Origin: Amphiscolops sp. MND2022
Taxonomy: Eukaryota
Direction of reading: 5' to 3'
Assembly: GCA_964187785.1 (NCBI GenBank)
Contig: OZ076409.1
Coordinates: forward strand, 7,814,001 to 7,878,000
Length of the DNA stretch: 64,000 bases
The notes beneath the pieces were generated by a model, which saw only the letters and a list, made by a program, of their open reading frames with translations, had not been told where the DNA came from and ran no database searches. The translations under genes were made by a program, and so were the position numbers. Shown here piece after piece: positions 1 through 29,789 of this stretch (within the stretch, counting starts at the first letter, position 1; each line of letters starts with the position of its first letter).

Positions 1-124
1 CCTCGTTGCTATCAGAATCATTGGCAGAAGACTGAGCCATGTCTGGGTCCGTTTGAACGGGTGTTTCTGATGAGGAACTAATAACTCTTCCGCTTCTGAG
101 TTCGGTGCCTAGATCTGGGTTCAT
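1..124 (-). CDS. gag: 5' end of gag of a second, tandem copy of element 1 (continues off the left edge)
   Basis: 1..124 is identical to 17008..17131, the start of gag ORF 15626..17131; ATG at 124 on the minus strand. Confidence 0.9.
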   Translation of the reverse strand, partial: MNPDLGTELRSGRVISSSSETPVQTDPDMAQSSANDSDSNE

Positions 125-696
125 AGAGGTGAGAGAAAAGGAATTATGAGTGAAGACTGGATTCTGGATGATTTTCGATTTATTTTACTATTTTGTGCCT
201 TTATTCGAACTCAAATTCACTATTTCTGAACTTGAGATGTAAATGCGATGAGTCTTACAGTAAGACAAGGATACTAGTATAGAATGAGAATAGTTAACGA
301 GGATTAAGTAGAGTTCATCCAAATTTCATCGAACAGGTATCAATCAAGAAATTACTCAAGAGTTGTGAAGGTAGCGTTTTTACGATGAATAAGAGATATG
401 TTTTCTAGTTCAAATCTGTCGTAATTCGTCCAACTGGACAGTAGCTAATCGCAATTTCGGTCTGAGTAATCTCTAATGGCGGTCCAAAATACAGCAGTTC
501 ACGTGTCTTTTCAGGCTGGTAAGACGCTAAATCTCTTACCAGCCGACTCTTATTGGCTATTGCCAGTTGGTGCTAATTGGTAAGTCACGTGACCGGTGTT
601 GTGAACTGCCGCAAGTTGGCCAAACCACATGGTACATCTACATATGTTAATTATGACTAATCATCACTTTACAATGTCGCAATTGCCTGCACACAG

Positions 697-2048
697 TGTC
701 ATGGTTTCCATAGCAACTCAAATCATTCAATAATGTACTAATTTCAAGTCAAAACAGAGTAAACTGCATCACAGGATGAGAAAACGATGTTTTTCCAACT
801 AATTCTAGCATTAAAATCAATACTTCAAAAACAAAGATGGAAACGCGATGAATTCGTCAGAATATTCGCTGATTTTCAAGTCTAGTTTAGCTCTGGATGA
901 AAATGCGATGAATGGTGGTCTTTTAGCTCGAAAATCAACACGATATGAACTGACGATGATAAAAGGATGAACTCGTCTTCAAAATGAATGATTTCCAGTA
1001 CAATTTAAATCAACGATGGTAAAAGGATGAACTCTCCTCGAAAATAACTAATTTCCAGCACTAGTGAAATTGACGATGAATTCAGGATGAATTCAGCCAA
1101 TAAAACAGGTGAAACAGCTAATCCTGCAGTGAAGACAAATATACGATGACTTTAGGATGAATACATTCAATAAAACAGCAAAATCTAATGAATGAAATTC
1201 CAACGATGGGTTTAGGATGAACTCAACTGAAAATTCGGTTAATTCTAACGTAAGTCGAACTAGCGATGGATTTACGATGAACTAGTGATGAGTTAATCTA
1301 ATAAAACAGATATCCAGCACTTCACTCTTTTTTAGGATGAATTAAGGATGTACTTTCTCATTTCTTGCATTTTCTGTTCAGGGCGATGGAATATAGATGT
1401 GTTATGCTCTTTTAAGAAATGAGAAGCACATTGAAGGTTAAAAATCACAAAACGACGATGAGTATAAGATGGTTTTCATGCATTTTAAAGTCCCGTGAGA
1501 TCCGCTGATGGATCACTAAATGAAATCAACTAAATGTCCCAAATTTTGTTCACCCGCAATCTTGGCGATGTGATTGCGATGAACCTTGATAACATAGCAC
1601 CGTGATTTCACTAGTAAGTGAAGTTAAAGGATCACTAAGTCCGCTGATGGATTAGTGATGAACTTTTCTGAAAATCGTCACGACTACAAGTCCTGAGGCG
1701 AGGGAGCTAGTAGAAGTTACATATTCCATTATTTCTACATCTCTCGGTCCAGTCTGACCGGAAAACTTCTCTCCCTCATCGTGACAAACCAATATTGAAT
1801 AAGATAGCACATTAAGAGCTATTGGCCAGATCATTTGTGCGGACACCGGAATTAGAGCGCTCAGTATTAAGTAAATATATATAGCTCAAACTCAGGGGGG
1901 ATAGGGATTAAAGTACAAGTAACGTAGGGTTGCTCACAACCATGGCTCTTATTATATGACATCATATTGCCCATATCTAAGTACATAAGACATAATATTT
2001 ACATTACAAATATTTAGTAGATTATATTTCCATCATGCTGGCATGACA
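697..2048 (-). repeat. LTR of element 1 shared by two tandem copies (3' LTR of the right copy, 5' LTR of the left copy); inner boundary tentative
   Basis: Outer boundary is firm: minus strand reads PPT-like CCGGGGAG then TGTCATG at 2048. Inner boundary 697 rests only on a 7-bp inverted repeat (TGTCATG 697-703 / CATGACA 2042-2048); no TGG primer-binding site follows it. TATA-like run at about 1873-1883. Confidence 0.55.
775..1660 (+). repeat. Array of GATG-N7-GATG motifs about 60 bp apart (repeated at 17782-18667)
   Basis: Motif starts at 775, 836, 896, 955, 1015, 1075, 1145, 1205, 1265 (triple), 1336, 1385, 1457, 1567 and 1646; sequence between motifs is diverged. Confidence 0.9.
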
Positions 2049-2062
2049 CTCCCCGGGGCGGG
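2049..2062 (-). other. Short polypurine-tract-like plus-strand primer of element 1
   Basis: Minus strand CCCGCCCCGGGGAG directly precedes the LTR start TGTCA; element 3 has the related CCCGGGGAGTGA before its LTR. Confidence 0.7.
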
Positions 2063-2575
2063 ATTTGGACTGAGAGTGCAGGGGCCAAATGTGCAGAGGA
2101 TGGTTGTCTCGGCGTTGGCTTCGACTGGTCCTTCGTTTGGTTGGGGAGAAAATGGCCTTCGTTAGTTCTGAATTGGCATGTCCTTCGTTTGTTCTGTCCT
2201 GTGAGAGCTTCTCTGAGAAGAGGACCTTCGGTAATCGTCTTTTCTGGCATCATTCCTGGGTGATTTCGGTTAAAATTTTCGACGCGGCAACTCTAATTCT
2301 TGGTCCATCGAATGTCCGTTGATCTGCATTTTATTGGTTGTCATGCTTTTGACGGGAGTTTCGGCTGGTTATTTTCGGTAGAAGCTGATTTCTCGGAGAA
2401 GAGTTTCCCTCCAAAACGCCTACGCTGAGTAAACAATTCGATTAGCTTCCCTGACAAATTGGCAGCGAGTCAGGGATGAATGAACGATGAATTGTTTGCT
2501 CAGCGAGACACTGATGCCGTTTAGCGGAGTGGCTGGCGCCGTTGCTTGTTTACTCGCGATGAAAGGAGATGAATC

Positions 2576-2677
2576 GTTGCCATAGCAACTGTCAAAAGTT
2601 ACTTCCGCTGCTCGACTTTTGAGTGAAAGGAAAGAGATGAATTCGTCGCCATAGCAACTGTTGCTCGATTTGATTGG
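2576..2677 (+). promoter_or_regulatory. Two RFX X-box motifs and a CCAAT box upstream of the antisense cargo gene
   Basis: GTTGCCATAGCAAC 2576-2589, GTCGCCATAGCAAC 2645-2658, ATTGG 2673-2677. The X-box consensus GTNNCCATRGNAAC is established knowledge. Confidence 0.65.
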
Positions 2678-3182
2678 CTGAGACTGAACTTATAAGTGAA
2701 GGAAATTACAACCGGTTGTCAGCGGCATTCTCATCCATAAATCATCCTCCATTCAAGTCGGTTTGAAAATCGCCACGATTTCCTTTGCGCGTTTCCGCTC
2801 AACTTCGTCGGTATTGATCTGAGACTGGCAGCTGTCAACAAATCAAATACTTGAAAAGTTTTTTGTCAAGTCCTAGGAGAGGACGATCCATTTTCAGAGA
2901 AAGCTTGAGTTGGCTGTACTGGGAAGAGAAGTGATGTCAGTATTTGAAATCGGAGTTTTTTCATCGATTTTTCATCTTCTGAATTCAAGTATTTGATTAA
3001 CATGGCATTCAAGCTGCGTCGCGCTCTTTGAAATCTTCTATTGAATTTGTCCTTCCGTAATCATGGTTGATCAGGCCATTTAATTACTGATCAAATTCTC
3101 TGTTCCTGAATTCTTCGATTTCTTTCCTTCTTTCACCTTCTTCCATTCTTTTCAGATTGTTTGTTTTGCAATTCACTTCGAG

Positions 3183-6100
3183 ATGTCAGACATTCATTCA
3201 GTCTACTCCTTACCAGATACCGAGGTCACAGAAAGTAAGTGCACTAGTTTTTCTTTTCTTCACAAACGGGTTAGGGACAACTAGGTACTGAAAATACGTC
3301 TTGCCTTAGCTGACTCAGTCCATTCTGTTGGCATCGTATCTGAGTTGACGACGCTTCAAACTGTGCCGCCGCAAGAGACTCCAATGGCCCAACCAGCTAT
3401 CGCTGAGCCTCAGGTTGACCCTGGTAGTCAGCCAAATCAAGAGTTCAATGTCCCGTATCTTCCGCAGTGTAAGTACTATCCTTCCGGCCTTCAGATCAGT
3501 CTTCGAATCCCTCATGTCTCATCCTTACTTCGTCCAGTAGTTGACTCCTTTTCGTATGGTGTTTCAGACCACTACCCCTGGTATGCTTCCCTAGGTAGCA
3601 TCACCTTCGGGTGGTATGACCGCCACATGCGGGACATGCTGCGGGATAGCATTCAGCAGTACAGTGAGTTTGTCAATTTCCTTTTCACTTCTCTAGGCTA
3701 TCGTCCGAACACTCCGATGTGATTCCGATGTAAACATCTCATCTGCATGTAGTGTCCTTTGCGGTCGATTACCCATGTAATTCACCTTCGAGATGAATTT
3801 AGGATGTGTCATGAACATTCACAGCTCTTCATGACTGACTCGCTGTAAATCCCATTTTTTGAAGATGAGTTTTGGATGTATTCTTCTCCGTTTTTTCTTT
3901 CTTCGCGCGGCGTACGCGCTCTTTCTTCTCTAATCGTCGTCGTCCAGTAACTGTTTTCTTCTTTCAGGCCCCACACCGATTCACGCGCCGAGGCCTCGGC
4001 CCATCACCTGTTCCATTGGAATAGGGACTAGTGATCACCAGGCTGAGAACATTGATGCTAGTACTCAGGGAGGGCCTCCTCAACTTGACTTGTCCTCGTT
4101 CCTTCAGGACTTGTCATTTGGGAGCGTAAGTTCTCCTGTCAGGCAGGCACCAGTGTCTGTACTGTCACCAGTGCTGAGGAGTTCTTTTGCCGCTAGTAGT
4201 CCTCCTCCTGCTCGTATCACTCTCGACGCTGCTGTGAATGCTGTTGTCGATTGCGTGGATGCAGTCATCGATGCCGTTGTCGATACCTCTGATCGAGCAG
4301 TCCAGGCCGTTGTGGAAGTCAGTGAGTCCTCCACCTTCCATGATCCTCCTGTTGAGGAACCTGTCATCGTTGCCTCTTCTTCTGTTCCTACCCTCCCAGT
4401 CAGCGACACTGATACAGTTGGTGATGCTTCCGTGAGTACCGCCGGCGGTGCTGAGACCCTACTTGAAGTCCCTGGTGACTTCTCGTCCGACATCCTTCTG
4501 CCTGCTGAACCTGACCGAGAATCTGCCTCTCCCAGTGCTGCTCTCATGTCGACCGTGGCTTCTCCCATGGGACCCAGTCTACTGGATAGTGATGACGAAC
4601 CAATCGCGTCCCGTCTGCCAGGTTAACTAAACAGCTTTAAACTGGTGAAGTATCTGATCAGTAGATTTTTCATTCATTTCCTTCTTCGCTTTTGCTTTCA
4701 CTAGCATCTTTCACGTTTTCCTTCTTTTCTATCCATTTTTCATCGTTCTTCTGTTTTCACTATATGGTTTTCTGCAGTTTTCCATTTTTCCATCACATTC
4801 TCATCGTCAAAGGTCGTTGAACATTAGTTTTCGCTCTCTAGTCCTTTTAGAATTTTCATCTCTTTTACATCTTTAAAATTTTCTCTTTTCGGTTTTCGCT
4901 ATTTGTCGGTGTTTTCTTTTCAGTTTTCATCTCTTTTTCATCGTTAAGTTGTTTTCGCTCTAAAATATCTCAATTTTGGTTCAAAGTCGTTCTATTTATC
5001 TCTTTTCCATCGTTCAAGTTTTCATTCTTTAAGGTTTCCATTTTTCATCCTGGTGATGTGCAAAATGCATCTCTTTTTCATCTTTTCGTTTTCTTCGTTT
5101 TCCGCTTATATTTCCTGATGAAAATATTATTTTACATCATTTTTTCATCACTCCGGGTGACTTTTTGGAAGTTTGCGGTGGTTTTTTCATTTTTCAGTTT
5201 TGTAAAGATTATTTTAAGATGATCTTGGTATTTTGTGTGAACGTGGTTGTTTTTAGTGGATGTGTTATGTGTTGGCATGTGATTATTTCTGTTTGTAGGG
5301 CGAAAAGTGATCAAGTCATGGTGGTTTTCTCATGAATACTGTGGGCTTGCACTGGGCTATGCACGAAGTCATCAATCGCGGCTATCATTCGTTCGATGTT
5401 TACTGTGCAAGCGTGATATCAATGTTGGCAGTCGTGGTATCACTACTTTCATGGAGCATTGTCGTGGGCTCCGTCACCATCGTTTGGACTGCCTGATTCG
5501 TTTGTTTCGGGATTTACCGTTGCGGCGACGCGATGGGTCATTGATGAGCAATGAAGAGAGTGTGGAGTGTAGGAGCAGCCTGGGCGGTGCAATGGTGCCA
5601 TTCATTGAGACGTGCCCCTCCTTTAGTGTACTGGAGGTGTTTGAGTTGGAAGCAGCTGGACGACCTGTGTGGGGGGACGAGGAGGAAGAGGATCTATTGT
5701 GTGAAAAGACCGTGCATCTGTTCGTGTGCCTGGTTATTGACGCAATCTATCGTGGGTGTCAGTTCGCCAGCGTAACGAGTTTGTGGGAGGTGATGGTTGC
5801 GTCAGAGCCGCAACATGCCTCTCTTTTCGGTGTTACTTGCGAAGTGAATGACGTGATGGTAATTCGTATTTCCTTCTGTTTTTTTTTGTTTCATGAAGGT
5901 TCGTGTAGATGGAAAAAAAATATACATTTAGTGGGTAGTTATCCATAGGTAGTTTTGAAGCTGGTGTAGGGGGGATTTTCAACTATTAATTGTGTCGGGT
6001 TATTTTTAAGCGGATCGTGAATTAATGTATAGTAAAGTTGATGTTTGTTTTTAGAGTGTGGTTCTACTGAGTTTGTGGCCGTACGCGATGAAGAGGCTAA

Positions 6101-7962
6101 TCACTCTGTGGTCTAACTGTGGGTTTACCAGCTTTCATGTGGCTGTTGGGCAGGGGCGCGTGACTGGCACGGTCACAATGTGTTCTCTAGAAGGGATCAG
6201 TCAGTACTGTGTCTTCAGTTTTTGTCTGTCTGAGGATTGGGAAAAACGAGTTGTCACGTGGATGATTAACATGTGGTGTTGTTTGCTTGGAGAACCTGTT
6301 CCACTTGGACTGTGTTGCGATGCGTTGCCTCAGCTGGGTGGACTGTTCCAAGCCGCCACTGGCGTTGGGTCACTGGAGTTGAAGACGCTGTCATTGTGTG
6401 AAATCAGTCGGACAATTGTGGACGTGGGAGGGCGGGCGCTCGGCGGGACTGATATTCACGTGGTGCTGAATCATCTGCAGAAGAGACTGAAAGGATATGT
6501 CAGGGATCCTCTGTTGTTGAGCTGCCCTCATCTGTTGCAGGTCGGTGTAGTCTTCCGCTTTTATTTGAGTGTTACTATGAGTTGTACTCTTTGTCTGTTT
6601 CTGTTGTTTGTATATTGGTAGTTGTTTGTATTGTAATATTTTGTTTTATCTATGTGGAGCTTGTTATGTTTTGTTTAGGCTATTTTATCCGGGGAAGTCT
6701 ACGTGTGGACTCTTGCTGATGTGTGCGATGAATTACGTGCCAATTGGGCAGAAGTGCTGTGTCTAGTTCGATTCGCTTCGGGAGACGGGCCAGTAGATGC
6801 GTTGGATCTTACTTTGAGGGTGGAGTTTGGGATCCCAATCAGGCTCCGAGCACTTAGTATGGTCTATCGTGCTTGTTAGTATGTCGTATACTTACCGGGT
6901 GGGAAGTTTCTGCAGTTGGCTTTACGTATTCGAGTGTTTAATCAATTCGCATTTTTCGGGAAGGGAACGGGGGGGTTAGTCCGATTATTTACTGTGTATA
7001 GAATTGTTGTGTTTTTCATTTCAGTAGTGACGTCGTACGAAAAGAGTTTCGGGTCTTCATCATTGCGGAGTTGTTACTGGGCGATCGAGAGTGCATTGTT
7101 TGTGAAACGCCTGCTGACTCTACTGGTTGATGAAGAGAGCCTGCCCACTGATCTGGATATCCGAGGGTGGTTGTTTGTGGATGTAGACAGTTATGTTGTG
7201 TCAGCGACTAAGTTACAAGCCCTTATCGCGAGTTTCAGCTCAGATGAGAATTTGACGGAAGATGTGGCTGTGTATGAAGAGGATGTGTCCCGAGTGCCTA
7301 ATTTCTTATTGTCTATCGTCAAGAACGTATTATTGCTACCAGGGATTCGTGACGATCTTGCTTTCGTGCGAAGTGTCTTTAGTTCACCCAGACTGGTTTG
7401 TGTGGCGGAAACTGATCTTGTGGCGGAAATTCGCAATTTTACTGGTTTACTTGTGGAAATGGGGCGGATCAGTTTAGTCGAACAGGATCGAATGGAGCTC
7501 GGATTTCTGGAATTCATAAGGGCTTTTCGGTGCGAGCCTAGGCTAGCTGGGGCGACTGCCGAGTATTCAGCCGTTGATCTGTTGCGTTTCTGTTCCAGTC
7601 GCGGGTCGCAGAGTCTGTTACAACTTGTCTTTTGCCTGGGAGGGGTGGTGCAGAGCACTTGCAATACTATATGCGAAGGGATCGGGCACCTGCCGAGCGA
7701 TGTCATGAGCTGTGTATGTGCAGTAATCTCTAGTTATTTGTCTGCTAATCATGTGCGAAGTTACGGTAGTGTCAGTGGGCCACTGATGGAAGAAGTGATG
7801 GAGTCGCACAGAAGGCTCGTCGATCTATCAGAGATTACAGAGGGCATGTTGTGGGACGACGTCGGTATCGTGGCTGGGGAAGATTATCGTCTCCAGTTAT
7901 ATGCTAGTCTTGGTTATGATGTGACCGGGGAGCGGGCTGCCAGTCCCGAGATTGGAAACTGA
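3183..7962 (+). CDS. Seven-exon antisense cargo gene, about 1014 aa: low-complexity N-terminus, BED-like Zn finger, degenerate hAT-transposase-like body
   Basis: Exons 3183-3234, 3310-3468, 3968-4621, 5299-5858, 6055-6540, 6679-6874, 7025-7962. All six introns are GT..AG with matching phases (1,1,1,0,0,1); joined length is 3045 nt with no internal stop. CLLC-x16-H-x5-H at 5397-5480. AATAAA at 8063. Confidence 0.8.
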
Positions 7963-8062
7963 CTTATTAACTGTTTATGTTGTTCATTGTTTTGCTATAT
8001 AATTTGTTGTATTTACATATTAGTGTAGTTATTCATATGTTGGGAGACCCATGAAAAAGGTC

Positions 8063-8068
8063 AATAAA
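8063..8068 (+). terminator. Polyadenylation signal of the antisense cargo gene
   Basis: AATAAA about 100 nt after the TGA at 7960-7962. Confidence 0.55.
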
Positions 8069-10535
8069 TGGAAAGCACAGTGATGACTATAGTGAGAATG
8101 ATACAAATCCAGATGCTACGGCGGAAAGATCGGTAGTAGTGTGTTTACAACATTAGTTATTTTGGTGCCCAACAGCTGTTTTTCTTTTGAGTTGTTAGAG
8201 ATAGTTACAGAGGATATTAAGTACGTGTAAATCAACAAGTTCGTCCAACAGTTCACTTGAAGCATTGTCTTCGGTATTTTTGTATCATAGATCATCGGTC
8301 GGGCGTCGCTTTTATGGTGTTCATCGTTATTACATCTCGTGGTAGTGTGAGTAACTCGTCAGCGTTTGATCTTTGATTTTTCATCGTATTTTCATCACGT
8401 TTTCTTCGGTCGGCCGAGCGACGTCGCGAAAAGTGATTTTTCATCTTTTTTACATCGTTTGTTATATGTGATTCATTGCATGTTTGTTACATGTGATTTT
8501 TCTACATAGTTCATCGTTTTTTCATCTTGCCTTTGAATTTTTGCATTTTTGCTAGCTATTTGGTGTAATTCATCGTTTTTGTATCGCAAGTTTGACTTGA
8601 CAAGTTTTTTGCTCATTTTGCTGTATAGTTCATCTTCTTTTCATCGTGCGTTTGAAATGTACGGATTTTGCGTGTTTTCGATGTTATTTGGGTATAACGT
8701 AAGCGGGGGTTGCATTTTTCATGTCCGGAGGAGGTTTTTATTAATATTGCGGTGTTTCGGATTGTTTTCTTCATGTATTTTAGCGTTATACGGTTATAAC
8801 CGTTTGTCGTGTTTTTGAATTTGCATGAGTTTTATGTTACATGTGTTTTGATCATCGTCGTCATGTTTCTAATTTGTCAACTACGGAACGTTATTGCATG
8901 TATTTTTAGTTCGCTTTCTGGTGACCGCCGCTTGCGTGGCGGTCGAAAATAAGTTCACTCAGCAGTGGTACTGATAGCCTGTAGGCGTGCAAGGTACTAG
9001 TGGCTTCAGTCCAGAGCTGGGTGAGTGGAGCTGCTCCGCTCCTTTCAGATAAATGGAATCTCGTAGTTTCGGGCTATATATAGTCTATATGTCATTTTTT
9101 CGGTTGGTTGTTTGCCATTATTCGTCAAAATGGGTTTGTCCATTTGACGGTCAGGCCGATCAATCAATGTGTTTGACATCTACGGTTATGCATGTGTCCA
9201 GTTTTAGACTATCTGTTTCTTGTATTTGCATGTATGGATTGTTACATGATGTGTTCTTTTAAATGGGTTGCCCCATTATTGACATGTCGTTATATGTTCG
9301 GTGTTAGTTTCATGTTTTTTGATTGTATTTTCGTTCATTTGGACAGGGCTTTGTCGTCACAAAGCCCCTACAAAACTAACTGAGAATCCACTAGCCGCTG
9401 GATAACCAACGCAGCAAGCTTCATCCGAATATGGTTGTGAGCTCCCCGCCTCAACTAACCAGCACTCTTTTCAGAGAAATGCCAGCCAGCACGAAGGAAT
9501 GGTTTTAGCTTTTCGATAGGGGTGTTTTGTATGTTATGATCTGATGTTTACTGAGGGGTGCTCACTCCTTTATTAGTTTTGTAGGTGTTTCGTCAATTCT
9601 TATATTTTGCATGTAAATTAGTAGACTTCATGTATTTTCGTTTGTTTGTTTCATTTTTATTCGTCTAGGTTCGGATGGTTTTGGTGTGAATTGCATATAT
9701 TATCTCGTTCATTTTTGAACGGTACATGTATATTTCCGTGCGTTGCTCATTTGTATTGCATGTAGTTTGGAATTGTTAATTGCTTTCGTGACGTCATTGA
9801 TTTGGCAGGTCTTTGAACTTTACATGTATTGATCATTACATTTTTGTGTCGCATAATTTCGTTGCATGATTCGAAATAAGGTCGGTTGTTTTTTATCGTT
9901 TCGTGGAGTTACATGTTGTTTGCGAATTAGCTGATTTATTGTGATGTTATGTTGATGGTGTTTCCCATCACAAAGAGGTGTTGGTAAGTCATTTAATATT
10001 TTCGAATTTCCATTTAGACTAAATTCATCGTTTTGACATCCTCCAGCGAAGCTAGAGTATTGTGTCAGGTTAACGATAAATTCGGTCACGATTTGATGGT
10101 AGTGTCCATCACAAATTCATCTCGTTAATTGATTTCGTGTAATTTATGAATAATTGGATCGAGTTCATCGCTATTTCATCCTCTAGCCGAGCTAGAGTCT
10201 TATGATAGTATGAACGTGATTGCGTTCGCATTCTGATGGTATTTTCCATCTCAAATGCATCGTTAGTAAATATTGCATGTTGATTGGTCGAATTTTTGAC
10301 TGAGTTCATCACCTTTTCATCTCAAATTTTGTGTGTTGTTTTTCCTGGGTTTTTGATCATGTTTCATCCATTTTACATCTCGTTTTGTTTGTATGCGGTT
10401 TTCATGTGATTTTTAGTGACTTTTCATCCATTTTACATCTTCATGTACTTTTTAAGTTCACATTGCATGTAATTCATTCGTTATGTGATTTGTTCATCCG
10501 TAATACATCTCAGATTTAAAATGAGACTTTCTTGG

Positions 10536-13500
10536 CTAAATCGTTACGTCTATTTTGTTGGTCTTTCTCAGTGCGTTTCTAGCTGAAGTAATCTCATGAA
10601 TGAGGAAGTCTGGATACGTTTTCGGTGTAGGGTTCTCACGTAACCTGTACCTACTTTGATTTGATCTAGACGGTCTAGGACTCATCCTTTCTTCATCTTC
10701 ATTTTGCGTGTTTGTCTGTTGTGACTGGTTTTCGTGTTGTTCGTCTCTCAGAGGTACTCTTATCCTACTTTCATCGCGGGGAGGCGGTAGAATAATTTCT
10801 TCTCGCGTTCCAAATCTAACTGTAGGTGGTCTAAAGTTGTTGTGATCAGTTTCTACTTGGTGATAGTCTATTCTCGTGGTTATTTCTGGTGGAATTACTT
10901 GTGGAGTGTGTTGTTCTTGTACCCGAGGAATTGTTTCTTCTGAAGGCTCTTCTTCGACCAAGTCTTGATCTAGATTGTCATTCTCATTCTGATCTACTTC
11001 GTCGGTCGTCGGAATATTCGAGTCGAAAATGTCCGTGTCTTCAACCCTTTCGGTATCTGGGTAGAGATGTTTGGACACGTTGATGTCGTCAATCGGAAAT
11101 TCCGGTTTGAACAATCTCAGTCGCATGCGATGTACGCACTGAGTTTGGTGTGTGCCTACTTTGCGGATGATGTAGTTGCTATCGGATAGCACTTTAATCA
11201 CCTTGTACGGTCCTTTCCAATGGAAAGTTTTAAACTCTTCTTTGCTTCTCTGAGAGTCGTACTTAGGGTCTAGTAGGAACACAAATTCATTCACCTTCAG
11301 TGGCTGTGCTCGTGCTTTTCTATCATAGTACGTTTTGTACTTGTGATAGGCGGAAATGATGTTATCTAGATTGTCTCTGAAGATAAAATTCATTTTGTCT
11401 AGAATTTCGTTCACGTCCTTGCACTTTGTTTCAGCCGGTTTGTTTGCGTTTCGGAATTGCAGATCTAGTGAGTTGTATGGTGTTCTTCCGTGGAAAATTT
11501 CAGTTGGTGAACATTTCAGTGAATCATGATACGTTGTGTTATGGGCCATGATTGCTATGTCGACATAGCGGTCCCATTGTGGTCTGTCTGCGTTTACGCT
11601 AATCTTAAGGATCTTTTTCAGTTTCGCGTGCGTTCTCTCCACCATGCCTATTGTCTGCGCGTGCTTTATCGTGGCATGGGAGATGTGAATATCAGCCGCT
11701 TTCGCGATTTCAGACAGAAGTTCCGCCGTGAACGCCGTGCCTTTGTCGGTCAGAATGTGTTTGGGCACATACGCGTGTTTTGTGAAGATCGACAGTAGTC
11801 CTCTGACTACGGAATGTGTGTCAGGTCTCTTCAGCGGAACGGCGAACAGGTAGCGCGAAAAAACGTCAACAGCCGTCAGAATGTGTGTAAAACCGTTCGA
11901 TGCCGGGAGTGGACCAACGATGTCTATTTCCAGCAGGTCTTCTGGTCCGTCGCACGGGTCGTAGATTTTTTGTAACGGTGGACGTAGTTGCGTTTCTTTT
12001 ACACTTTTAGACTTCATGCAGTTTTCACATCCGTCAAGGACTTTTTGAACTTTACAGGCTAAGTTAGGAGAGTAATATCTTTTACGAAGTTCATACAACA
12101 TTTTCTTTAAACCAGGGTGTCCTTGTACCGGGCTGTTATGTAGAGTCCTAATTATTTTCAAAATACAGTCTTCAGGAACGACTAACTGCTTATGAGACTC
12201 TAGTCCCGTGTGATCAAAAAACTGTCTGTACAGGACACCGTTTACAACTTGTAGGCGTTTTCGATTTTTGTACAACTTTTGAAAAAACTGGTCTTGCATG
12301 TTAACTGGGTGTTGCAAAATTTCAGTACCTTCTAAAAATCTAATCATTTTTTGGATAACCCAGTTATTTTTCTGGACCTGAATTAGATCGATCCCCTCGG
12401 CGGGGCTAACCTGACTCATTACCGGGTGTGATAATGATACTTTACGGATGAATTGCGAGAGTTGAATCGGCTCGTCCACGTCTGTGAGACGGTACGTCAG
12501 ATGGTTGTCAGTCGCGAAGTCATCTGAGGCCGCTGTTCTCTCACAGTTGGTGAACTTCATCCCTTTCCCATCGTCATGAGCCACGTCAGTGCCAGTTGCC
12601 AATTTCATCTCTTTGACATCCTTCTGGCGTTTGCATCTGAGTGGTTCGCTCGCGGGGAAGTAATCAGGCTCGTCTTCCTCCTGTTTTGGTGTACGGGAGG
12701 CGATGTCGATCTCGATCCTGTGAATTGGAATAGTATCAGTCAATTTTAAATGTACACGGTCTTCAGGTCTAATCTCAAGCCGAGATAAGTAATCCGCTGC
12801 GGGATTTTCAACTCCTGGAACATGTGCTAATAGAAAATTGAACTGAAGGGTTTGGTCGCAAAAATTCCAAAGTGAAGGCGGGATATGCTTCGCCTGGAAA
12901 AATCTAGTTAAGGCCTTATTGTCAGTCATAACAATGATGGGTTTTTTCGCACCCCACAAAATGTGGCCAAATTCATCGAAGGCAAAGTGCATAGCTAAAA
13001 ACTCTTTGGCATACATTGTTAGAGACATCTGGCCGCCCTGAAATTTCTTAGAGCCAAATGCAACAGGGGCGTATGTATGTTTGACTGACGGGTCTGCATA
13101 ATCTTCGATTAACAACACATAGCCTGCAGCGTGTTCGCTGGCGTCACACATGATTACCAGTTGTTTATCTGGTAATGGCAGTTTTAGAGACACTTTTGTT
13201 GCTTTTAACAAACTTTCATTAATTTCAAAAATAGCATCTTTATGTTGTTGGTTCAGCTTGAAAGGGACGTCTTTCTTGATGAGTTCCTGTAAACAGCAAG
13301 TTTTATCAGCTAGACGGGGAATGTAAGACCTGTAAAAGTTCACAAAACCAAGATAACGTTGCAACGCTTTCACTGAATTGGGGGGTTTCAACTTCGTTAA
13401 ATAGTCTGTTACGCGTTTTTCAATGGGAGCAATACCAGTGCTAGAAATGGTTTTTCCCAAGTACTCAATTTGTTTTTGTCCAAATTCACATTTACTCATG

Positions 13501-15629
13501 CTAAGTTTAAGACCAGCTTTGTGCAATTGTTGAAAAACAAGTTCAAGGTTGGTAATCAATTCTTCGGGTGAGTGTGCTGCAATTCCAATATCGTCAACAT
13601 ATTGGGCACAGCGGTCCGCTTTGACCAAGGGGTCCAAATACTCACGGATTACTCCTGTAAATGCTGACAAAGAACGATTAAGACCTTGTGCTAGACGTAA
13701 AAATGCAAAAGTTCTAGACCCAAAATTAAACGATAACAGTTGGACAGATTGCTCATCGGCCATTGGAATGCAATGGTAGGCCTGGGAACAATCAAGTTTG
13801 CAGAAGTACTTTTTCCCGGCCATGTGTTGGGCAGCGTCAGCAATTGTTGTTACGGGATGATTGTGCTCACCGTAATCGTTTTTGATCAGGTGGTTTATTC
13901 TTCTCAAGTCAACTAAAATCCTCAATTTACCATTAGGTTTACGCTGAGCAAATATCGGGGAAGAGTATTTGCTGTGAGGCAAAGTAGTTATAATCCCGTA
14001 CTCTTGCATTAGGGCTAATTCCACGAGCAAATCGTCCTTCAAATTTGTCGGAGTCGGGAGACTTTGTGAATAAACAGGTTCTTCATGTTGAGGTGTTAAC
14101 TTAACTTTAAAATCAGTGTTCATGCCAATATCAAAACGGTGTCTAGCAAAAATGGAGTTGTACTTTACCAGCAACTCCTCTACCTGTAACCGTTGAGACG
14201 GAGTAAGAAGCGAGTCGTCCCAGTTGAAGTTCTTCAGGAAGTTCATCCGTTGTTCATCGGATTGGGACGGGTCAAGCTTCTCGAGCTCTCGCAGTGCCAG
14301 AATCTCATCATAAATCCGTCGCTCAATTGCGTTGAGTTTGTCTGGCTCACTGCACGTCTCGGGAGTTGGGTACCACTTGGTTGACTTCATTTCAGGGTTC
14401 ACGAACAGTTGGTTGATCACTGCTTCGGCTTCATCTGGATACTTGGTGATCAAGTTCAAGTGTTCCACTGGCATGGGCGTGATGTTTGCCGCCTGGTGTG
14501 GTGTCGGGATGCGAAAGTGTGCCAGAGTGGTGTTGGCTTCAAGTGTGTACGTGTGGTTGTTTGGGTTGGTGACCTGGATTGTCGTCTTGCCCTCGTCTAG
14601 GTCAACCAAAGCTGGAGAAACAAGCAGACACGTCTTTCGCATGAATCCAGGTGAGCCCTCAACTGTACCAGTTGTAAGTGAGATGTCCGCGTCACTGTGG
14701 ACCTGTATCATCACTTGATGGAGAGGAGGGATCACTGTTCTAGTACTGGAACACAAATCAATTAAACCAGTTTTGAATCTGTTGTTCTTTTGCTGTCTAA
14801 CTTGCATGGACATCATGTGATTAGGGAAGTGGACAAGGTGGTTTTTGATGTCTAAGTTGACTGAGTACTTTTCAAAAAAGGACATTCCAATTAAAATTGT
14901 TCCCATTGTTGGCAGGATTAGGAACGTTTCTTCGAATACTTTTCCAGCAACGTAAAATCTAAGTAAGACTTGCTTACGCACTGGGACTAAGTTCCCGTTT
15001 GCTATTTGAATTTTGAAATTCGGAGGGGGGAATTCTTGAAGGATGGCTTCTGGATGAGCCGTTGTTATTTTTCGTAGTTCGGCTTCAGACATTGCACTTT
15101 GTATTGCGCCTGTGTCTAAAAGTGCGCTGTTTTCGTATTTGTCAAACTGAAGAGGGACGTACAGCATTTTATCTTTCTTGTTTAGATGTAAAGTGGGACT
15201 GAGAACGTGAATTTCTGTTTTAATTGCATGTTTTTTAGTTTTTGAAACATTAATACTACTCTGTTTTGCATGTTTTTTAATACTAAGCCGTTTGTCGATT
15301 GTTGAGTGTGAAGTCGAGTCGTCGTCTAGATGGTGGGTTTCCATCTCTTTGGCATCTTCCACCTGCCTCATGGTGTTTGGTTGCCAGTTCATCGTTTGTT
15401 CATCGTTGATTTCAGCGAGTGGAGAAAAGCGGCTGCCGTTGAGTTGACTTGCATTTCTCATCGCTTTTTCATCGTTGGAAAGTCTTCGCTGATAGACGTC
15501 GTCAGCTTTTGGTCGTTTGTCCAATGAAGGCTGCCATTTCTTCATTGGACGGTCGTGTGTAGTTGGTTGAGTCGAAAGTCGTTGGTCGCGCGTTGTGTTT
15601 CTAGCGGGTGGAAATCGTGGCGGAATCAA
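10536..15629 (-). CDS. pol: Gypsy pol polyprotein (protease, RT, RNase H, integrase), expressed by -1 frameshift
   Basis: LLDTGA protease; QYVDDI RT; MCDASE RNase H; H-x6-H...CENC and EIDIVG/LTDKG/MVERTH integrase motifs; 1697 codons open. Confidence 0.96.
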   Translation of the reverse strand: MIPPRFPPARNTTRDQRLSTQPTTHDRPMKKWQPSLDKRPKADDVYQRRLSNDEKAMRNASQLNGSRFSPLAEINDEQTMNWQPNTMRQVEDAKEMETHHLDDDSTSHSTIDKRLSIKKHAKQSSINVSKTKKHAIKTEIHVLSPTLHLNKKDKMLYVPLQFDKYENSALLDTGAIQSAMSEAELRKITTAHPEAILQEFPPPNFKIQIANGNLVPVRKQVLLRFYVAGKVFEETFLILPTMGTILIGMSFFEKYSVNLDIKNHLVHFPNHMMSMQVRQQKNNRFKTGLIDLCSSTRTVIPPLHQVMIQVHSDADISLTTGTVEGSPGFMRKTCLLVSPALVDLDEGKTTIQVTNPNNHTYTLEANTTLAHFRIPTPHQAANITPMPVEHLNLITKYPDEAEAVINQLFVNPEMKSTKWYPTPETCSEPDKLNAIERRIYDEILALRELEKLDPSQSDEQRMNFLKNFNWDDSLLTPSQRLQVEELLVKYNSIFARHRFDIGMNTDFKVKLTPQHEEPVYSQSLPTPTNLKDDLLVELALMQEYGIITTLPHSKYSSPIFAQRKPNGKLRILVDLRRINHLIKNDYGEHNHPVTTIADAAQHMAGKKYFCKLDCSQAYHCIPMADEQSVQLLSFNFGSRTFAFLRLAQGLNRSLSAFTGVIREYLDPLVKADRCAQYVDDIGIAAHSPEELITNLELVFQQLHKAGLKLSMSKCEFGQKQIEYLGKTISSTGIAPIEKRVTDYLTKLKPPNSVKALQRYLGFVNFYRSYIPRLADKTCCLQELIKKDVPFKLNQQHKDAIFEINESLLKATKVSLKLPLPDKQLVIMCDASEHAAGYVLLIEDYADPSVKHTYAPVAFGSKKFQGGQMSLTMYAKEFLAMHFAFDEFGHILWGAKKPIIVMTDNKALTRFFQAKHIPPSLWNFCDQTLQFNFLLAHVPGVENPAADYLSRLEIRPEDRVHLKLTDTIPIHRIEIDIASRTPKQEEDEPDYFPASEPLRCKRQKDVKEMKLATGTDVAHDDGKGMKFTNCERTAASDDFATDNHLTYRLTDVDEPIQLSQFIRKVSLSHPVMSQVSPAEGIDLIQVQKNNWVIQKMIRFLEGTEILQHPVNMQDQFFQKLYKNRKRLQVVNGVLYRQFFDHTGLESHKQLVVPEDCILKIIRTLHNSPVQGHPGLKKMLYELRKRYYSPNLACKVQKVLDGCENCMKSKSVKETQLRPPLQKIYDPCDGPEDLLEIDIVGPLPASNGFTHILTAVDVFSRYLFAVPLKRPDTHSVVRGLLSIFTKHAYVPKHILTDKGTAFTAELLSEIAKAADIHISHATIKHAQTIGMVERTHAKLKKILKISVNADRPQWDRYVDIAIMAHNTTYHDSLKCSPTEIFHGRTPYNSLDLQFRNANKPAETKCKDVNEILDKMNFIFRDNLDNIISAYHKYKTYYDRKARAQPLKVNEFVFLLDPKYDSQRSKEEFKTFHWKGPYKVIKVLSDSNYIIRKVGTHQTQCVHRMRLRLFKPEFPIDDINVSKHLYPDTERVEDTDIFDSNIPTTDEVDQNENDNLDQDLVEEEPSEETIPRVQEQHTPQVIPPEITTRIDYHQVETDHNNFRPPTVRFGTREEIILPPPRDESRIRVPLRDEQHENQSQQTNTQNEDEERMSPRPSRSNQSRYRLRENPTPKTYPDFLIHEITSARNALRKTNKIDVTI

Positions 15630-17131
15630 AAACCCTGATTTATGTCTTCATCAGAGTAGGTTTCTTGGTCTTCTTCTTCGGTGACTGCTTGCATAGGATT
15701 CATCGGCTTTTGTTGTCGTTTTAAGTCTTGTCTTCTAGTTCTGTTGTCATCTTGTGAATTCGTTGCGTATGGAATCTTTCCATATGCAGAACTGCTTTCT
15801 TTAGGGACACGTCGTCTGCAATCCCTTGCTGAGTGGCCTGTGTAACCGCAAATCTGGCAGACCAATTTTGGATTGTATTTCGGCTTATCTGGATCGGCTG
15901 CTTTCTTCATCGGGATTGCATCCTCCTTCTTTATGCCGTTCGCTTCGTCTCGTTGTCGGGCGCGACATTCCGTTTTGCGGTGACCTGTTTTTCCGCAGTA
16001 GAAACATTGTCCCTCAAATCGTTTTCGTTCTGTCGGTTGTGCGGTCGTCGTTGTTGTTGTAGGCTTCGTCGTTGTAATCGTAGGCGGTGCTGAGGAGGTG
16101 ACCGCGTTGAATGGTTGGATTGCCGTAGGTGGCGCGACGTACTGCTGGTACTGGTATTTTCGCATTAGGTAGGTTTTGATTTCCTCTGGGGAGCTCTCTT
16201 CTTTGTTTGCCATGGTGAGCTCTTGTTGAATCTCGACTGGCAGTTTTCCAAACAGGAACATTTTGATTATTCTGTCGGCCTCATTGCCGAAGGCTTGTTT
16301 GGCAGTCTTCTTGAGATTTTTGAGGAAATCGCCGAATGTTTCTGTTGTGGGATCATAGCGTGCTTGATCCCATTTGTAACGGGCCACTTCCTTTAGATCC
16401 TCTTTTGCAAATTCTTTTCTGAAGAGGTCGAGTACGTCCTTTAGTGTTGTCATTGGCGTTATCTGGATGGATTGCCAGTATTCTATTGCGTCATCTCTCA
16501 AAAGGCTTTGAAAGAAGTGTAGTTTGTTCTCCTCGGTGATTTTGTTGGCAAGCGGGCTAAGGTGGTTGAGGAGAAGGTGCTCAAATTCGACGAATTTGTC
16601 TTTTTGGCCTCTGAAATTTGGCACGTGTGTCTGCAGAAGCTTCGTGTTGGTGGTTGTGTTTTTGATCCGTTGGGGGATCGTCTCGATTGCATTGAGTAGT
16701 CGTTCCTCATTGCTTCTGGGGGTTGATTCTCCTTCGTCTGAATCGTCTTCTTGGTAACTTCTGAAGTTGGTGAAGCTGGTTGTCGGGCGGTTGGAGCGGG
16801 TTTCTGTAGCTCCTGTCACCATGTCGAGCCCTACTGTGTGGGTCGGCTTTGAAGGACCTTTCGAGGTTGACTGTCGGTTTTCGGTGTCTGTCTTACTTAT
16901 GACAGCCATCATTAAGTCCTTCAGTTGACTGAACTCATTCTGTAGTTCGTTTATCTTTCTCTCATAACTCTCTTTTATTTCAGATAACTGAGACGAGATA
17001 TCGGAAACCTCGTTGCTATCAGAATCATTGGCAGAAGACTGAGCCATGTCTGGGTCCGTTTGAACGGGTGTTTCTGATGAGGAACTAATAACTCTTCCGC
17101 TTCTGAGTTCGGTGCCTAGATCTGGGTTCAT
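15626..17131 (-). CDS. gag: Gypsy gag
   Basis: 501 aa; coiled-coil N-terminus; CFYCGKTGHRKTEC and CQICGYTGHSARDC zinc knuckles. Confidence 0.95.
   Translation of the reverse strand: MNPDLGTELRSGRVISSSSETPVQTDPDMAQSSANDSDSNEVSDISSQLSEIKESYERKINELQNEFSQLKDLMMAVISKTDTENRQSTSKGPSKPTHTVGLDMVTGATETRSNRPTTSFTNFRSYQEDDSDEGESTPRSNEERLLNAIETIPQRIKNTTTNTKLLQTHVPNFRGQKDKFVEFEHLLLNHLSPLANKITEENKLHFFQSLLRDDAIEYWQSIQITPMTTLKDVLDLFRKEFAKEDLKEVARYKWDQARYDPTTETFGDFLKNLKKTAKQAFGNEADRIIKMFLFGKLPVEIQQELTMANKEESSPEEIKTYLMRKYQYQQYVAPPTAIQPFNAVTSSAPPTITTTKPTTTTTTAQPTERKRFEGQCFYCGKTGHRKTECRARQRDEANGIKKEDAIPMKKAADPDKPKYNPKLVCQICGYTGHSARDCRRRVPKESSSAYGKIPYATNSQDDNRTRRQDLKRQQKPMNPMQAVTEEEDQETYSDEDINQGF
15629..15635 (-). 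other. -1 ribosomal frameshift slippery heptamer G GGU UUU
   Basis: gag reads CAG GGT TTT TGA; a -1 slip enters the pol frame (TTG ATT CCG...). Confidence 0.85.
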
Positions 17132-17703
17132 AGAGGTGAGAGAAAAGGAATTATGAGTGAAGACTGGATTCTGGATGATTTTCGATTTATTTTACTATTT
17201 TGTGCCTTTATTCGAACTCAAATTCACTATTTCTGAACTTGAGATGTAAATGCGATGAGTCTTACAGTAAGACAAGGATACTAGTATAGAATGAGAATAG
17301 TTAACGAGGATTAAGTAGAGTTCATCCAAATTTCATCGAACAGGTATCAATCAAGAAATTACTCAAGAGTTGTGAAGGTAGCGTTTTTACGATGAATAAG
17401 AGATATGTTTTCTAGTTCAAATCTGTCGTAATTCGTCCAACTGGACAGTAGCTAATCGCAATTTCGGTCTGAGTAATCTCTAATGGCGGTCCAAAATACA
17501 GCAGTTCACGTGTCTTTTCAGGCTGGTAAGACGCTAAATCTCTTACCAGCCGACTCTTATTGGCTATTGCCAGTTGGTGCTAATTGGTAAGTCACGTGAC
17601 CGGTGTTGTGAACTGCCGCAAGTTGGCCAAACCACATGGTACATCTACATATGTTAATTATGACTAATCATCACTTTACAATGTCGCAATTGCCTGCACA
17701 CAG

Positions 17704-19055
17704 TGTCATGGTTTCCATAGCAACTCAAATCATTCAATAATGTACTAATTTCAAGTCAAAACAGAGTAAACTGCATCACAGGATGAGAAAACGATGTTTT
17801 TCCAACTAATTCTAGCATTAAAATCAATACTTCAAAAACAAAGATGGAAACGCGATGAATTCGTCAGAATATTCGCTGATTTTCAAGTCTAGTTTAGCTC
17901 TGGATGAAAATGCGATGAATGGTGGTCTTTTAGCTCGAAAATCAACACGATATGAACTGACGATGATAAAAGGATGAACTCGTCTTCAAAATGAATGATT
18001 TCCAGTACAATTTAAATCAACGATGGTAAAAGGATGAACTCTCCTCGAAAATAACTAATTTCCAGCACTAGTGAAATTGACGATGAATTCAGGATGAATT
18101 CAGCCAATAAAACAGGTGAAACAGCTAATCCTGCAGTGAAGACAAATATACGATGACTTTAGGATGAATACATTCAATAAAACAGCAAAATCTAATGAAT
18201 GAAATTCCAACGATGGGTTTAGGATGAACTCAACTGAAAATTCGGTTAATTCTAACGTAAGTCGAACTAGCGATGGATTTACGATGAACTAGTGATGAGT
18301 TAATCTAATAAAACAGATATCCAGCACTTCACTCTTTTTTAGGATGAATTAAGGATGTACTTTCTCATTTCTTGCATTTTCTGTTCAGGGCGATGGAATA
18401 TAGATGTGTTATGCTCTTTTAAGAAATGAGAAGCACATTGAAGGTTAAAAATCACAAAACGACGATGAGTATAAGATGGTTTTCATGCATTTTAAAGTCC
18501 CGTGAGATCCGCTGATGGATCACTAAATGAAATCAACTAAATGTCCCAAATTTTGTTCACCCGCAATCTTGGCGATGTGATTGCGATGAACCTTGATAAC
18601 ATAGCACCGTGATTTCACTAGTAAGTGAAGTTAAAGGATCACTAAGTCCGCTGATGGATTAGTGATGAACTTTTCTGAAAATCGTCACGACTACAAGTCC
18701 TGAGGCGAGGGAGCTAGTAGAAGTTACATATTCCATTATTTCTACATCTCTCGGTCCAGTCTGACCGGAAAACTTCTCTCCCTCATCGTGACAAACCAAT
18801 ATTGAATAAGATAGCACATTAAGAGCTATTGGCCAGATCATTTGTGCGGACACCGGAATTAGAGCGCTCAGTATTAAGTAAATATATATAGCTCAAACTC
18901 AGGGGGGATAGGGATTAAAGTACAAGTAACGTAGGGTTGCTCACAACCATGGCTCTTATTATATGACATCATATTGCCCATATCTAAGTACATAAGACAT
19001 AATATTTACATTACAAATATTTAGTAGATTATATTTCCATCATGCTGGCATGACA
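17704..19055 (-). repeat. 5' LTR of element 1 (inner boundary tentative)
   Basis: Identical to 697..2048; unrelated flank begins at 19056. Confidence 0.6.
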
Positions 19056-20808: not shown

Positions 20809-20810
20809 AT

Positions 20811-20822
20811 TGGTGCGACCAA
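20811..20822 (+). other. Primer-binding site of element 2
   Basis: TGGTGCGACC 2 nt after the LTR end; priming tRNA not determined. Confidence 0.7.
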
Positions 20823-20965
20823 GAAAATTCTTCTTTCTCTCCCATTCATTTCACAACTCTACAATTGTTGTACACCTTTTCTCGACTTTCTCATCCGATA
20901 TCTCTTTGTTCGACACACAGTTTCTCCACCTCTCAATATAGCCTACCGTTATTAACTTCAACGTT

Positions 20966-29725: not shown

Positions 29726-29789
29726 AACTTCGTCATTCTACCCTCTGGCTCACTCAAAACTAGTCACTACAGCTGAATGAAAAATAACC

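Follow-up and report, generated by a model that had tools for sequence, protein, structure and literature searches.

What reads a spaced DNA word that recurs more than fifty times within a single retrotransposon? Long terminal repeat (LTR) retrotransposons are usually viewed as dependent on host factors for their transcription and as passive targets of silencing. The question is raised by the first 19 kb of a 64,000-nucleotide stretch of the Amphiscolops sp. MND2022 genome (contig OZ076409.1; G000:C1:7814001-7878000 of a 1.07-Gb eukaryotic assembly), hereafter called the window, in which negative coordinates denote bases before its first nucleotide. This region holds an LTR retrotransposon, element 1, with gag and pol on the minus strand, a spliced gene on the opposite strand (the cargo gene) whose product has one BED-like finger, and arrays of the motif GATG-N7-GATG (GATGNNNNNNNGATG). 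Element 1 is best explained as a member of a very large Ty3/gypsy-type superfamily with a long-standing accessory gene opposite gag-pol. We propose that the finger protein encoded by the element may bind the arrays as an oligomer and so keep the copies of the superfamily active, a reading to which we assign a probability of roughly 0.45.

By its parts, element 1 is a complete Ty3/gypsy-type LTR retrotransposon on the minus strand, best read as an autonomous one. Comparison of the window with itself yields a direct repeat at 100% identity (1-2048 and 17008-19055), which grows to 2234 bp (-185..2048 and 16822..19055) when 8 kb of upstream sequence are added. The LTRs end in TG..CA and are flanked by a 5-bp target duplication, ATGGG; a duplication of this length is also present in F80, from a diverged family of the same genome, and in G1 and G2, from a deeper clade (both described below), i.e., in all four complete elements checked. 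The identity of the two LTRs indicates a very recent insertion. The parts of the element outside the cargo gene are the following:

1..2048 in the window, minus strand: 3′ LTR of element 1; the full 2234 bp start 185 bp before the window
2049..3182, plus strand: LTR end to cargo ATG, with a polypurine tract (PPT)-like sequence, the presumed promoter and 5′ untranslated region of the cargo gene, and 3 motif sites (2475, 2732, 2962)
10536..15647, minus strand: pol frame with protease (PR), reverse transcriptase (RT), RNase H and integrase (IN); 8 embedded motif sites
15626..17191, minus strand: gag, an open frame measured from stop to stop that encodes two CCHC knuckles (Pfam zf-CCHC twice)
16804..16821, minus strand: primer binding site (PBS)-like sequence, TGGTGACAGGAGC..., directly after the 5′ LTR
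16822..19055, minus strand: 5′ LTR, 100% identical to the 3′ LTR; its copy of the 17-site array occupies 17243-18667
19056..19060, no strand: one ATGGG of the target site duplication; its partner directly precedes the 3′ LTR, outside the window

The Pfam domains of pol follow the order protease (a weak match), RVT_1, RT_RNaseH, Integrase_H2C2, rve and Integrase_p58_C. The gag frame opens within the 5′ LTR and continues across the PBS, with an ATG that spans the LTR/PBS junction (16822-17191); its alignment to clade G begins at residues 10-48. The first 12 bases of the PBS, TGGTGACAGGAG, are conserved in four elements (element 1, F80, G1 and G2), and the PPT-like purine tract adjoining the 3′ LTR is short (GGGGAG in the minus-strand reading). 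Some 8.5 kb, with open frames on the plus strand, separate the stop of pol (10536) from the 3′ LTR (2048). Parts of the stretch 2049..3182 are 93-100% conserved between families at the translated level, and this stretch may act as the promoter of the cargo gene.

On both strands together, the window contains 70 matches to GATG-N7-GATG, against 2.12 +/- 1.31 expected (100 shuffles, maximum 6). Of these, 69 lie within 236-18667, and the remaining 44.9 kb of the window have a single one. One unit of the element, i.e., one LTR plus the internal part (-185..16821), carries 52 sites, 17 of which recur in the second LTR. The spacing is strictly kept: N7 is represented by 52 sites and every other spacing from 0 to 24 by at most three. 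The initial annotation, made from the letters of this DNA, had described an element tiled with one spaced motif, which these figures bear out; the array it reported is real, and its estimate of about 40 sites per unit was an undercount. Over the 52 sites the consensus reads R-N-GATG-(A/T-rich x5)-N-N-GATG-A-A, with no further conserved position within 25 bp. The motif is directional and consists of two half-sites, (C)GATG-N7-GATG(AA), which are 11 bp, or one helical turn, apart from start to start.

Sites on the same strand are most commonly 60 bp from each other (10 cases), and distances of 48-49, 70-72 and 81 bp recur as well; spacings of 49, 60, 70 and 81 bp correspond to steps of about one half-site repeat or helical turn. 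Tandem Repeats Finder (TRF) recognizes only 2.2 copies of a 60-bp unit, at 951-1079, which indicates that the spacers diverged while the cores were kept. The main arrays are these:

236..1660, plus strand: LTR array of 17 sites, 16 on the plus and 1 on the minus strand; commonest spacing 60 bp
3716..3878, plus strand: array of 3 sites in cargo intron 3
4791..5149, minus strand: array of 5 sites in cargo intron 4
8322..8645, minus strand: array of 5 sites in the spacer that separates the 3′ ends of cargo and pol
9943..10697, minus strand: array of 10 sites (9 on the minus, 1 on the plus strand), running into the last pol codons

The density of sites differs widely among the parts of the unit:

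LTR, 2234 nt: 17 sites, 7.6 per kb
LTR end to cargo ATG, 1134 nt: 3 sites, 2.65 per kb
Cargo introns, 1639 nt: 8 sites, 4.9 per kb
Cargo stop to pol stop, 2576 nt: 14 sites, 5.4 per kb
Cargo exons, 3141 nt: 1 site, 0.32 per kb
pol coding sequence, 5109 nt: 8 sites, 1.57 per kb
gag coding sequence outside the LTR, 1174 nt: 1 site, 0.85 per kb

TATA-like and AATAAA-like strings are found in the LTR and are compatible with a position of its array either in U3 or in the transcribed leader. It had been claimed that the sites almost never fall in conserved coding blocks. This is correct for the cargo exons, with their single site, and for the Pfam domains of pol, but nine sites do lie within gag-pol coding sequence. 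The eight sense-oriented ones (seven in pol, one in gag) are placed outside the Pfam domains, mostly in inter-domain linkers, and share a single frame, GAT-Gnn-nnn-nnG-ATG; by our own reasoning, this is because no other frame avoids TGA stops in GATGA...GATGAA.

Is the motif maintained by selection? The LTR of the window element was aligned with those of F63, F58 and F80, members of diverged families of the same genome whose last cargo exon is 63, 58 and 80% identical in protein sequence to that of the window copy, and the eight core bases of each array site were compared with all other array positions. Core bases are identical at 114 of 116 positions in F63 (other positions, 84.6%) and at 116 of 116 in F58 (86.5%); in F80 the figure is 90 of 116, the misses including three deleted units, with 54.7% identity elsewhere in the array. 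Furthermore, the coding sites of gag-pol are found at a constant offset in F63 (1556) and are likewise kept in F58. Together with the counts in the window and in the genome, these comparisons support the conclusion that the motif arrays are non-random, element-specific and under selection.

The gene that accompanies the arrays lies antisense to gag-pol, between pol and the 3′ LTR, and has eight exons, all of the GT..AG type. Its exon model was derived from an alignment with F80, F63 and F58, by searching for blocks open in one frame and bounded by conserved AG/GT, and is based on conservation only. The joined frame comprises 3141 nt and 1046 amino acids, with the ATG at 3183 and the stop at 7960-7962:

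3183..3234, plus strand: exon 1; ATG and GTAAGT donor conserved in 4 families
3310..3468, plus strand: exon 2; conserved frame and splice sites
3568..3663, plus strand: exon 3; conserved frame and splice sites
3968..4621, plus strand: exon 4; acidic, rich in Ser, Pro and Ala, 30 D+E vs 8 K+R
5299..5858, plus strand: exon 5; BED-like zinc finger (VRCLLC...EHCRG..HH)
6055..6540, plus strand: exon 6; structure model (pLDDT 51.8) with a helix, three strands, then helices
6679..6874, plus strand: exon 7; conserved frame and splice sites
7025..7962, plus strand: exon 8; ends at the stop, all-helical model, conserved C-terminus ...GERAASPEIGN
8063..8068, plus strand: AATAAA, about 100 nt past the cargo stop

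The AATAAA at 8063 may serve as the polyadenylation signal of the gene. Its splice sites are conserved in four diverged families. In comparison with F80, for which synonymous divergence is unsaturated, the ratio of nonsynonymous to synonymous divergence (dN/dS) is 0.26, 0.21, 0.14 and 0.24 for exons 5-8, respectively, and 0.25 for pol. Among 30 copies that are 93.9-100% identical, all 30 keep exons 5-8 at a constant length of 2180 nt, with no internal stop and with every splice dinucleotide intact. These values place the cargo gene under purifying selection and argue that it is functional. The genomic RNA carries the gene in antisense, so that none of the seven introns is removed from it by splicing; this would explain how they persist through retrotransposition. 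Identical LTRs, eight GT..AG exons and a frame of 1046 amino acids also agree with the initial annotation, which had seen here an LTR element whose antisense gene is intact, spliced and codes for a BED-like finger.

The same comparisons reveal that the modules of these elements have different histories, as seen from their synonymous divergence:

Window element vs F63 and F58: pol dS 0.17-0.19; cargo exons dS >1.1 or undefined; gag dS 0.72-0.87
Window element vs F80: pol dS 0.38; cargo exons dS 0.25-0.45; gag dS 2.05

Such discordance among LTR, gag, pol and cargo (element 1 against L032-L037) points to frequent recombination between lineages. Because modules are reshuffled in this way, large protein distances do not constitute evidence of fast cargo evolution. 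Fast evolution of the type produced by an arms race was considered and rejected: against F80, the dN of the cargo exons (0.06-0.07) is lower than that of pol (0.095), and against F63 and F58 dS is saturated.

Motif and gene also occur together at much greater distances. The fragment P0033, 22% identical to the last exon of the window copy, is encoded in the same genome at 100% identity. The elements G1 and G2 of this deep clade G have 1.8-kb LTRs, 5-bp duplications, gag-pol on one strand and the cargo gene on the other, and differ from the window element as follows:

pol: 70-80% protein identity
gag: about 53% protein identity
Finger region of the cargo: 54% protein identity
Rest of the cargo: 24-40% protein identity

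When all identical 4-mer pairs at spacings of 0-15 are counted without bias, GATG/CATC at N7 ranks first in both elements, with 55 and 50 sites per 20 kb. The site of clade G, a-CGATG-N6-CGATG-a-A-A, is often part of a palindrome with four half-sites, CGATG-N6-CGATG-N9-CATCG-N6-CATCG. Clade G carries the motif within LTRs that cannot be aligned to those of element 1. In addition, G1 and G2 share with element 1 a trio of sites early in the pol frame, shortly after its overlap with gag. Overall, arrays and finger gene co-occur in all six elements examined (the window element, F80, F63, F58, G1 and G2).

We then asked how far the motif extends beyond these elements. The assembly contains 39,332 matches to GATG-N7-GATGAA and 1,390 to the reversed control; an equal abundance throughout the genome, which the initial annotation would have counted against its proposal, is not what is seen. 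Among the first 100 places listed, 83 belong to five clusters, one of which is a full element with 41 matches. A composite of three half-sites has 1,479 matches in the genome and none for its control. On contig C1, 68 of the 100 composite matches listed sit in seven clusters together with a listed clade-G cargo exon; the other 32 form 13 small clusters that repeat LTR-array sequences and that we read as solo LTRs or fragments. In 64.5 kb of DNA outside such elements, only one GATG-N7-GATG site was found. In its paired and arrayed form, the motif is nearly limited to this superfamily. As relatives without the cargo gene, the other two gypsy elements of the window, with 0-1 sites, are a weak control, their pol being only about 25% identical; no close relative lacking the gene was found. 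If the excess of some 38,000 motif matches is divided by about 40 per element, the superfamily amounts, as a rough estimate, to the order of a thousand element equivalents in the 1.07-Gb genome.

The pol relatives found in databases form one group at 59-100% identity and one large group at 43-47%. P0138, of the latter, is abundant in the genome, and all 28 matches listed are 97-100% identical to it. A 3-kb locus (L069, G000:C3:73832072-73835071) downstream of a pol of this sister lineage (G000:C3:73827002-73832071) holds an antisense finger gene about 240 bp from the pol stop; its frames of 214, 187 and 411 amino acids are ordered like cargo exons 5, 6 and 8, and its finger reads CHMCKKN...HHRTEKH. 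Profile comparison with hhalign matches it to the finger exon of the cargo at 81.6% probability (E 1.1e-5, 135 columns), to exon 6 at 30.4% and to exon 8 at 8.0%. The antisense gene of L069 is therefore probably homologous to the cargo gene, with a different finger sequence, and the accessory gene is probably older than the split of the sister lineages. GATG-N7-GATG is absent from these 3 kb, in which no spaced word of any other kind is enriched either; they are nearly all coding, a class of sequence that is site-poor in element 1 too, so that this absence carries no information on arrays. A search with the finger alignment found no relative in metagenome or viral contigs. The palindrome with four half-sites occurs once each in seven high-GC metagenome contigs, which is the level expected by chance.

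What kind of protein does the gene encode? Three parts can be distinguished: an acidic N-terminal third of low complexity, one BED-like finger and a C-terminal body of about 650 amino acids. Residues 1-320 contain 43 D+E vs 11 K+R and are rich in Ser, Pro, Ala and Thr; such an N-terminus fits an activator. No part of the protein is better conserved than the finger, the pattern W-F-x-H-x-Y ... V-R-C-x-x-C ... E-H-C-R-G-x-x-H-H being invariant across the six elements. BED fingers are recognized by aromatic positions followed by CxxC ... H x(3-5) H/C, and the finger of the cargo fits this signature of aromatic residues and CxxC...H. Pfam zf-BED (PF02892) matches at E 0.0016-0.002 with 18.8 bits, under the gathering cut-off of 20.6 bits, and three of the six family members match at E <= 0.1; a protein atlas returns BED clusters at 0.85, to be taken as a lead only. 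The body of about 650 amino acids matches no Pfam family at E <= 0.1.

The initial annotation had called this protein a disarmed hAT transposase. This identity is not supported. A search with the last exon against 1.84 billion representative proteins gave 70 matches, all of them short unnamed fragments of open reading frames, and no protein of transposase length. No longer protein was found with the finger exon either; exon 6 retrieved 18 fragments among representative proteins and no usable match in the protein atlas. Searches of the PDB sequences with both cargo alignments returned nothing relevant. Structure models were made exon by exon, a scope to be kept in mind since a putative RNase H-like core would span an intron. 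The model of the last exon (pLDDT 68.6, all helices) has no Foldseek match in the PDB at E <= 0.001; in a wide structural search its best hit is XerD (Z 5.4, 72 residues), and the hAT transposase Hermes (PDB 8edg) comes at rank 12 with Z 4.6 and a root mean square deviation of 7.4 over 156 residues, in the range of noise for helical models. The low-confidence model of exon 6 has a helix-three strands-helix arrangement that is compatible with an RNase H-like core and is not diagnostic of one; its structural search gave no match, the best Z (4.9) involving short helices only.

A more direct comparison was made with hAT transposases of the same genome, which holds at least 146 matches above the Pfam cut-off to the hAT dimerisation domain (PF05699). 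Against five full-length hAT frames of 597-697 amino acids (L064-L068), hhalign assigns probabilities of 0.24% to exon 6 and 0.25% to exon 8; the finger reaches 1.2% (E 0.044, 34 columns aligned finger to finger). The hAT dimerisation domain has no match on the last exon at E <= 0.1. An origin from a hAT transposase is not supported, in view of the lack of any hAT-related Pfam match (E <= 0.1), of the 0.2% hhalign probability for the body and of a Hermes Z score within noise. The BED-like finger is the sole hAT-like feature of the cargo.

As a separate observation, many hAT transposons of this genome have intact frames of 597-697 amino acids with N-terminal BED-type fingers, and the five stretches fetched contain no GATG-N7-GATG.

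How could gene and arrays be related? We infer three things in turn: binding of the motif by a protein, the identity of this protein with the product of the cargo gene, and an effect of binding on the element. Most probably the arrays are cis-acting docking sites kept by selection, either for the cargo protein or for a host factor. In our proposal, the cargo protein would bind them as an oligomer, as is suggested by half-sites placed one helical turn apart and by the palindromes of four half-sites in clade G. Once bound, it could tag or cover the copies of the superfamily that encodes it, and binding might keep these copies transcriptionally active through transactivation (by way of the acidic N-terminus), anti-silencing or insulation.

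Several observations weigh against this proposal. The orientation of the sites is mixed, with 16 plus and 1 minus in the LTR and 7 plus and 28 minus in the internal part; the sole account we can offer is growth of the arrays by duplication, which is likely. The BED assignment falls under the Pfam cut-off (18.8 vs 20.6 bits), and a single finger reading 4-5 bp would need oligomerisation to recognize paired half-sites. The cargo gene is defective in three of the six representatives fetched, namely by a stop in exon 6 of F63, a stop in exon 5 of G2 and a frame change in exon 5 of G1, which means that individual copies decay. Finally, the motif is constant in the six elements despite cargo identities of 24-54% between clades; the co-variation of motif and finger between families that the initial annotation had proposed to look for is not seen. 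A constant motif and a best-conserved finger fit a conserved finger-motif pair, and they fit a host factor equally well.

Indeed, the main rival to recognition of the element by its own protein is that the arrays are sites for a host factor, such as a BED promoter or insulator protein of the BEAF/DREF kind, used as enhancer or insulator, with the cargo protein doing something else; we consider it possible, and somewhat less probable than our proposal. LTR elements with arrays of host-factor sites are known, Drosophila gypsy using Su(Hw) sites as enhancer/insulator elements. Convergence on a conserved factor would leave the motif invariant even where the cargo has diverged to 24-54%, and the half-site CGATG differs by one base from CGATA, the target of a host BED protein in the fly (PMC5021357). 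On the other side stand the near confinement of the paired, arrayed motif to this superfamily, the presence of the finger gene in all six array-bearing elements and the finger being the most conserved part of the cargo. A host factor that reads single half-sites elsewhere in the genome is still compatible with each of these.

A variant in which the cargo protein acts at another step is improbable. It would bind the arrays on extrachromosomal complementary DNA (cDNA) and serve nuclear retention, tethering or the targeting of integration. Viral proteins that tether episomes do work with repeat arrays, and the sites of element 1 are phased and spread over the whole 19-kb element instead of being placed near promoters only. 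However, a dense array in the LTR and an acidic N-terminus agree no less well with control of transcription.

We regard as less probable still that the motif works in RNA, as GAUG-N7-GAUG in the genomic RNA or in the cargo pre-mRNA, for packaging, export, translation control or splicing. From gag to the cargo 3′ end, 21 of 23 sites do appear as GAUG in the genomic RNA, and all eight sense-oriented coding sites are in one reading frame. The LTR array, however, has the opposite orientation (16 of 17 sites), the intron sites occur in both orientations, and in clade G the sites are DNA palindromes in which both orientations stand side by side; the single frame is explained by the avoidance of stop codons, and no Rfam family matches element 1. 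Finally, that the arrays are neutral satellite-like tandem repeats, with GATG pairs a by-product of the repeated unit, is very improbable: a 60-bp period, the short TRF repeat at 951-1079 and likely growth by duplication would agree with it, but cores conserved well above spacers largely refute it, and the restriction of enrichment to N7, the recurrence of the motif in the unalignable LTRs of a deep clade and the sites at conserved gag-pol positions speak against it too.

The proposal that the cargo protein binds the arrays of its own superfamily can be taken a step further. In this stronger form, which we put forward tentatively, the superfamily would encode a sequence-specific binder that occupies more than 50 phased sites per copy, coding sites included, and counters silencing by the host, as a retroelement counterpart of VANC. 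The finger-motif pair would then have been frozen while the rest of the protein diverged, a picture to which we give no great likelihood.

VANC proteins counter silencing and recognize a 9-bp motif that forms arrays in the introns and noncoding DNA of the VANDAL transposons encoding them (PMC5735166). Element 1 resembles this system in its dense arrays of a short motif in its own non-coding DNA and introns, rare elsewhere; the VANDAL arrays described in the same text have one orientation, have grown by tandem repetition and are paired with a transposon-encoded protein (PMC5735166). The differences are considerable. The VANDAL elements of Arabidopsis are Mutator-like DNA transposons and element 1 is a retrotransposon; VANC motifs, as far as that source reports, vary by family and co-evolve with the protein, whereas the motif studied here is constant over a deep divergence. 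No sequence relation was seen between the cargo and VANC.

A close parallel in overall anatomy is offered by Retand (Tat-group) elements of plants, Ty3/gypsy retrotransposons in which antisense open reading frames, putatively for DNA-binding proteins, accompany tandem arrays in the interval from pol to the 3′ LTR (PMC11963269); Retand-type elements are also the subject of PMC7264820. Thus, the statement of the initial annotation that no such arrangement is known in an LTR element is too strong. The Transposase_28 frames of Retand are predicted DNA binders, suspected to be regulators, and are kept in nearly all active copies (PMC11963269). Like Retand, element 1 has an extended stretch from pol to the 3′ LTR, an antisense gene, repeat arrays in that stretch and a proposed regulatory role. 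On the other hand, the Retand frames carry Transposase_28 (PF04195), which has no match on any cargo exon (Pfam, E <= 0.1). The text of PMC11963269 does not mention introns, of which the eight-exon cargo gene has seven, nor does it report a spaced motif, a conservation of core over spacer, or arrays in LTRs and coding sequence. The pol of element 1 has no close named relative. The combination of a BED-like finger, eight exons and a spaced motif with arrays in LTR, introns and coding sequence was not found in the open-access literature searched. Relative to Retand-type elements, the predicted eight-exon protein with its BED-like finger, the defined motif of two half-sites and the arrays in LTRs, introns and coding linkers are what sets the present case apart.

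Among host proteins, BEAF-32/DREF of Drosophila are comparable in having a single BED finger and a 5-bp motif (CGATA there, CGATG here), and the BED finger of BEAF-32B binds CGATA clusters as an oligomer (PMC5021357). These are host genes for which that text gives no fixed spacing rule, whereas the half-sites of element 1 are strictly 11 bp apart from start to start. With hAT transposases such as Hermes (PDB 8edg), the cargo protein has in common an N-terminal BED-like finger and a long body, and the hAT multimer reads many short sites; unlike them, it has no hAT Pfam domain, and the hhalign probabilities (0.2% for the body, 1.2% for the finger) and the Hermes Z of 4.6 set it apart. Regulatory proteins encoded by retroelements include HBZ of human T-cell leukemia virus type 1 (HTLV-1), whose gene is antisense and spliced, and Tas of foamy viruses, which binds DNA in the LTR and in an internal promoter. 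The cargo is like them in being a regulatory protein, if our proposal is right, and unlike them in that HBZ and Tas belong to unrelated protein families, have one or few sites and come from vertebrate hosts. HTLV antisense genes are also mentioned in PMC11963269.

If motif and cargo are partners, element 1 would represent a retroelement with a private cis/trans recognition system, and escape from silencing, regulation of both strands and discrimination of self from other repeats would become directly testable. Should the stronger form outlined above be true as well, this would be the first such system known in an LTR element. With a host factor as the binder, the pattern of conservation would still mark a well-defined regulatory code of unusually rigid geometry, with half-sites one turn apart and palindromes of four half-sites.

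The rest of the window contains further repetitive DNA:

20397-38150, plus strand: second LTR element, with 412-bp LTRs 98.8% identical, frames for gag, RNase H and integrase, and 1 motif site
31097-33355: extra frame within the second LTR element, matching a viral fusion glycoprotein family of the Monjiviricetes (E 8e-22)
49700-50397: tandem array whose copies, 72-97% identical, recur internally at offsets near 29-60 bp and near 180 bp
54276-63998, minus strand: third gypsy-type pol (RT, RNase H, IN), truncated at the edge of the window; 52-56% GC vs 33-45% elsewhere
54276-56243 and 56180-58567, minus strand: two long frames without Pfam match, downstream of the third pol and on the same strand

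The glycoprotein match points to an env-like capture in the second LTR element. A strong negative GC skew extends over 22-38 kb of the window.

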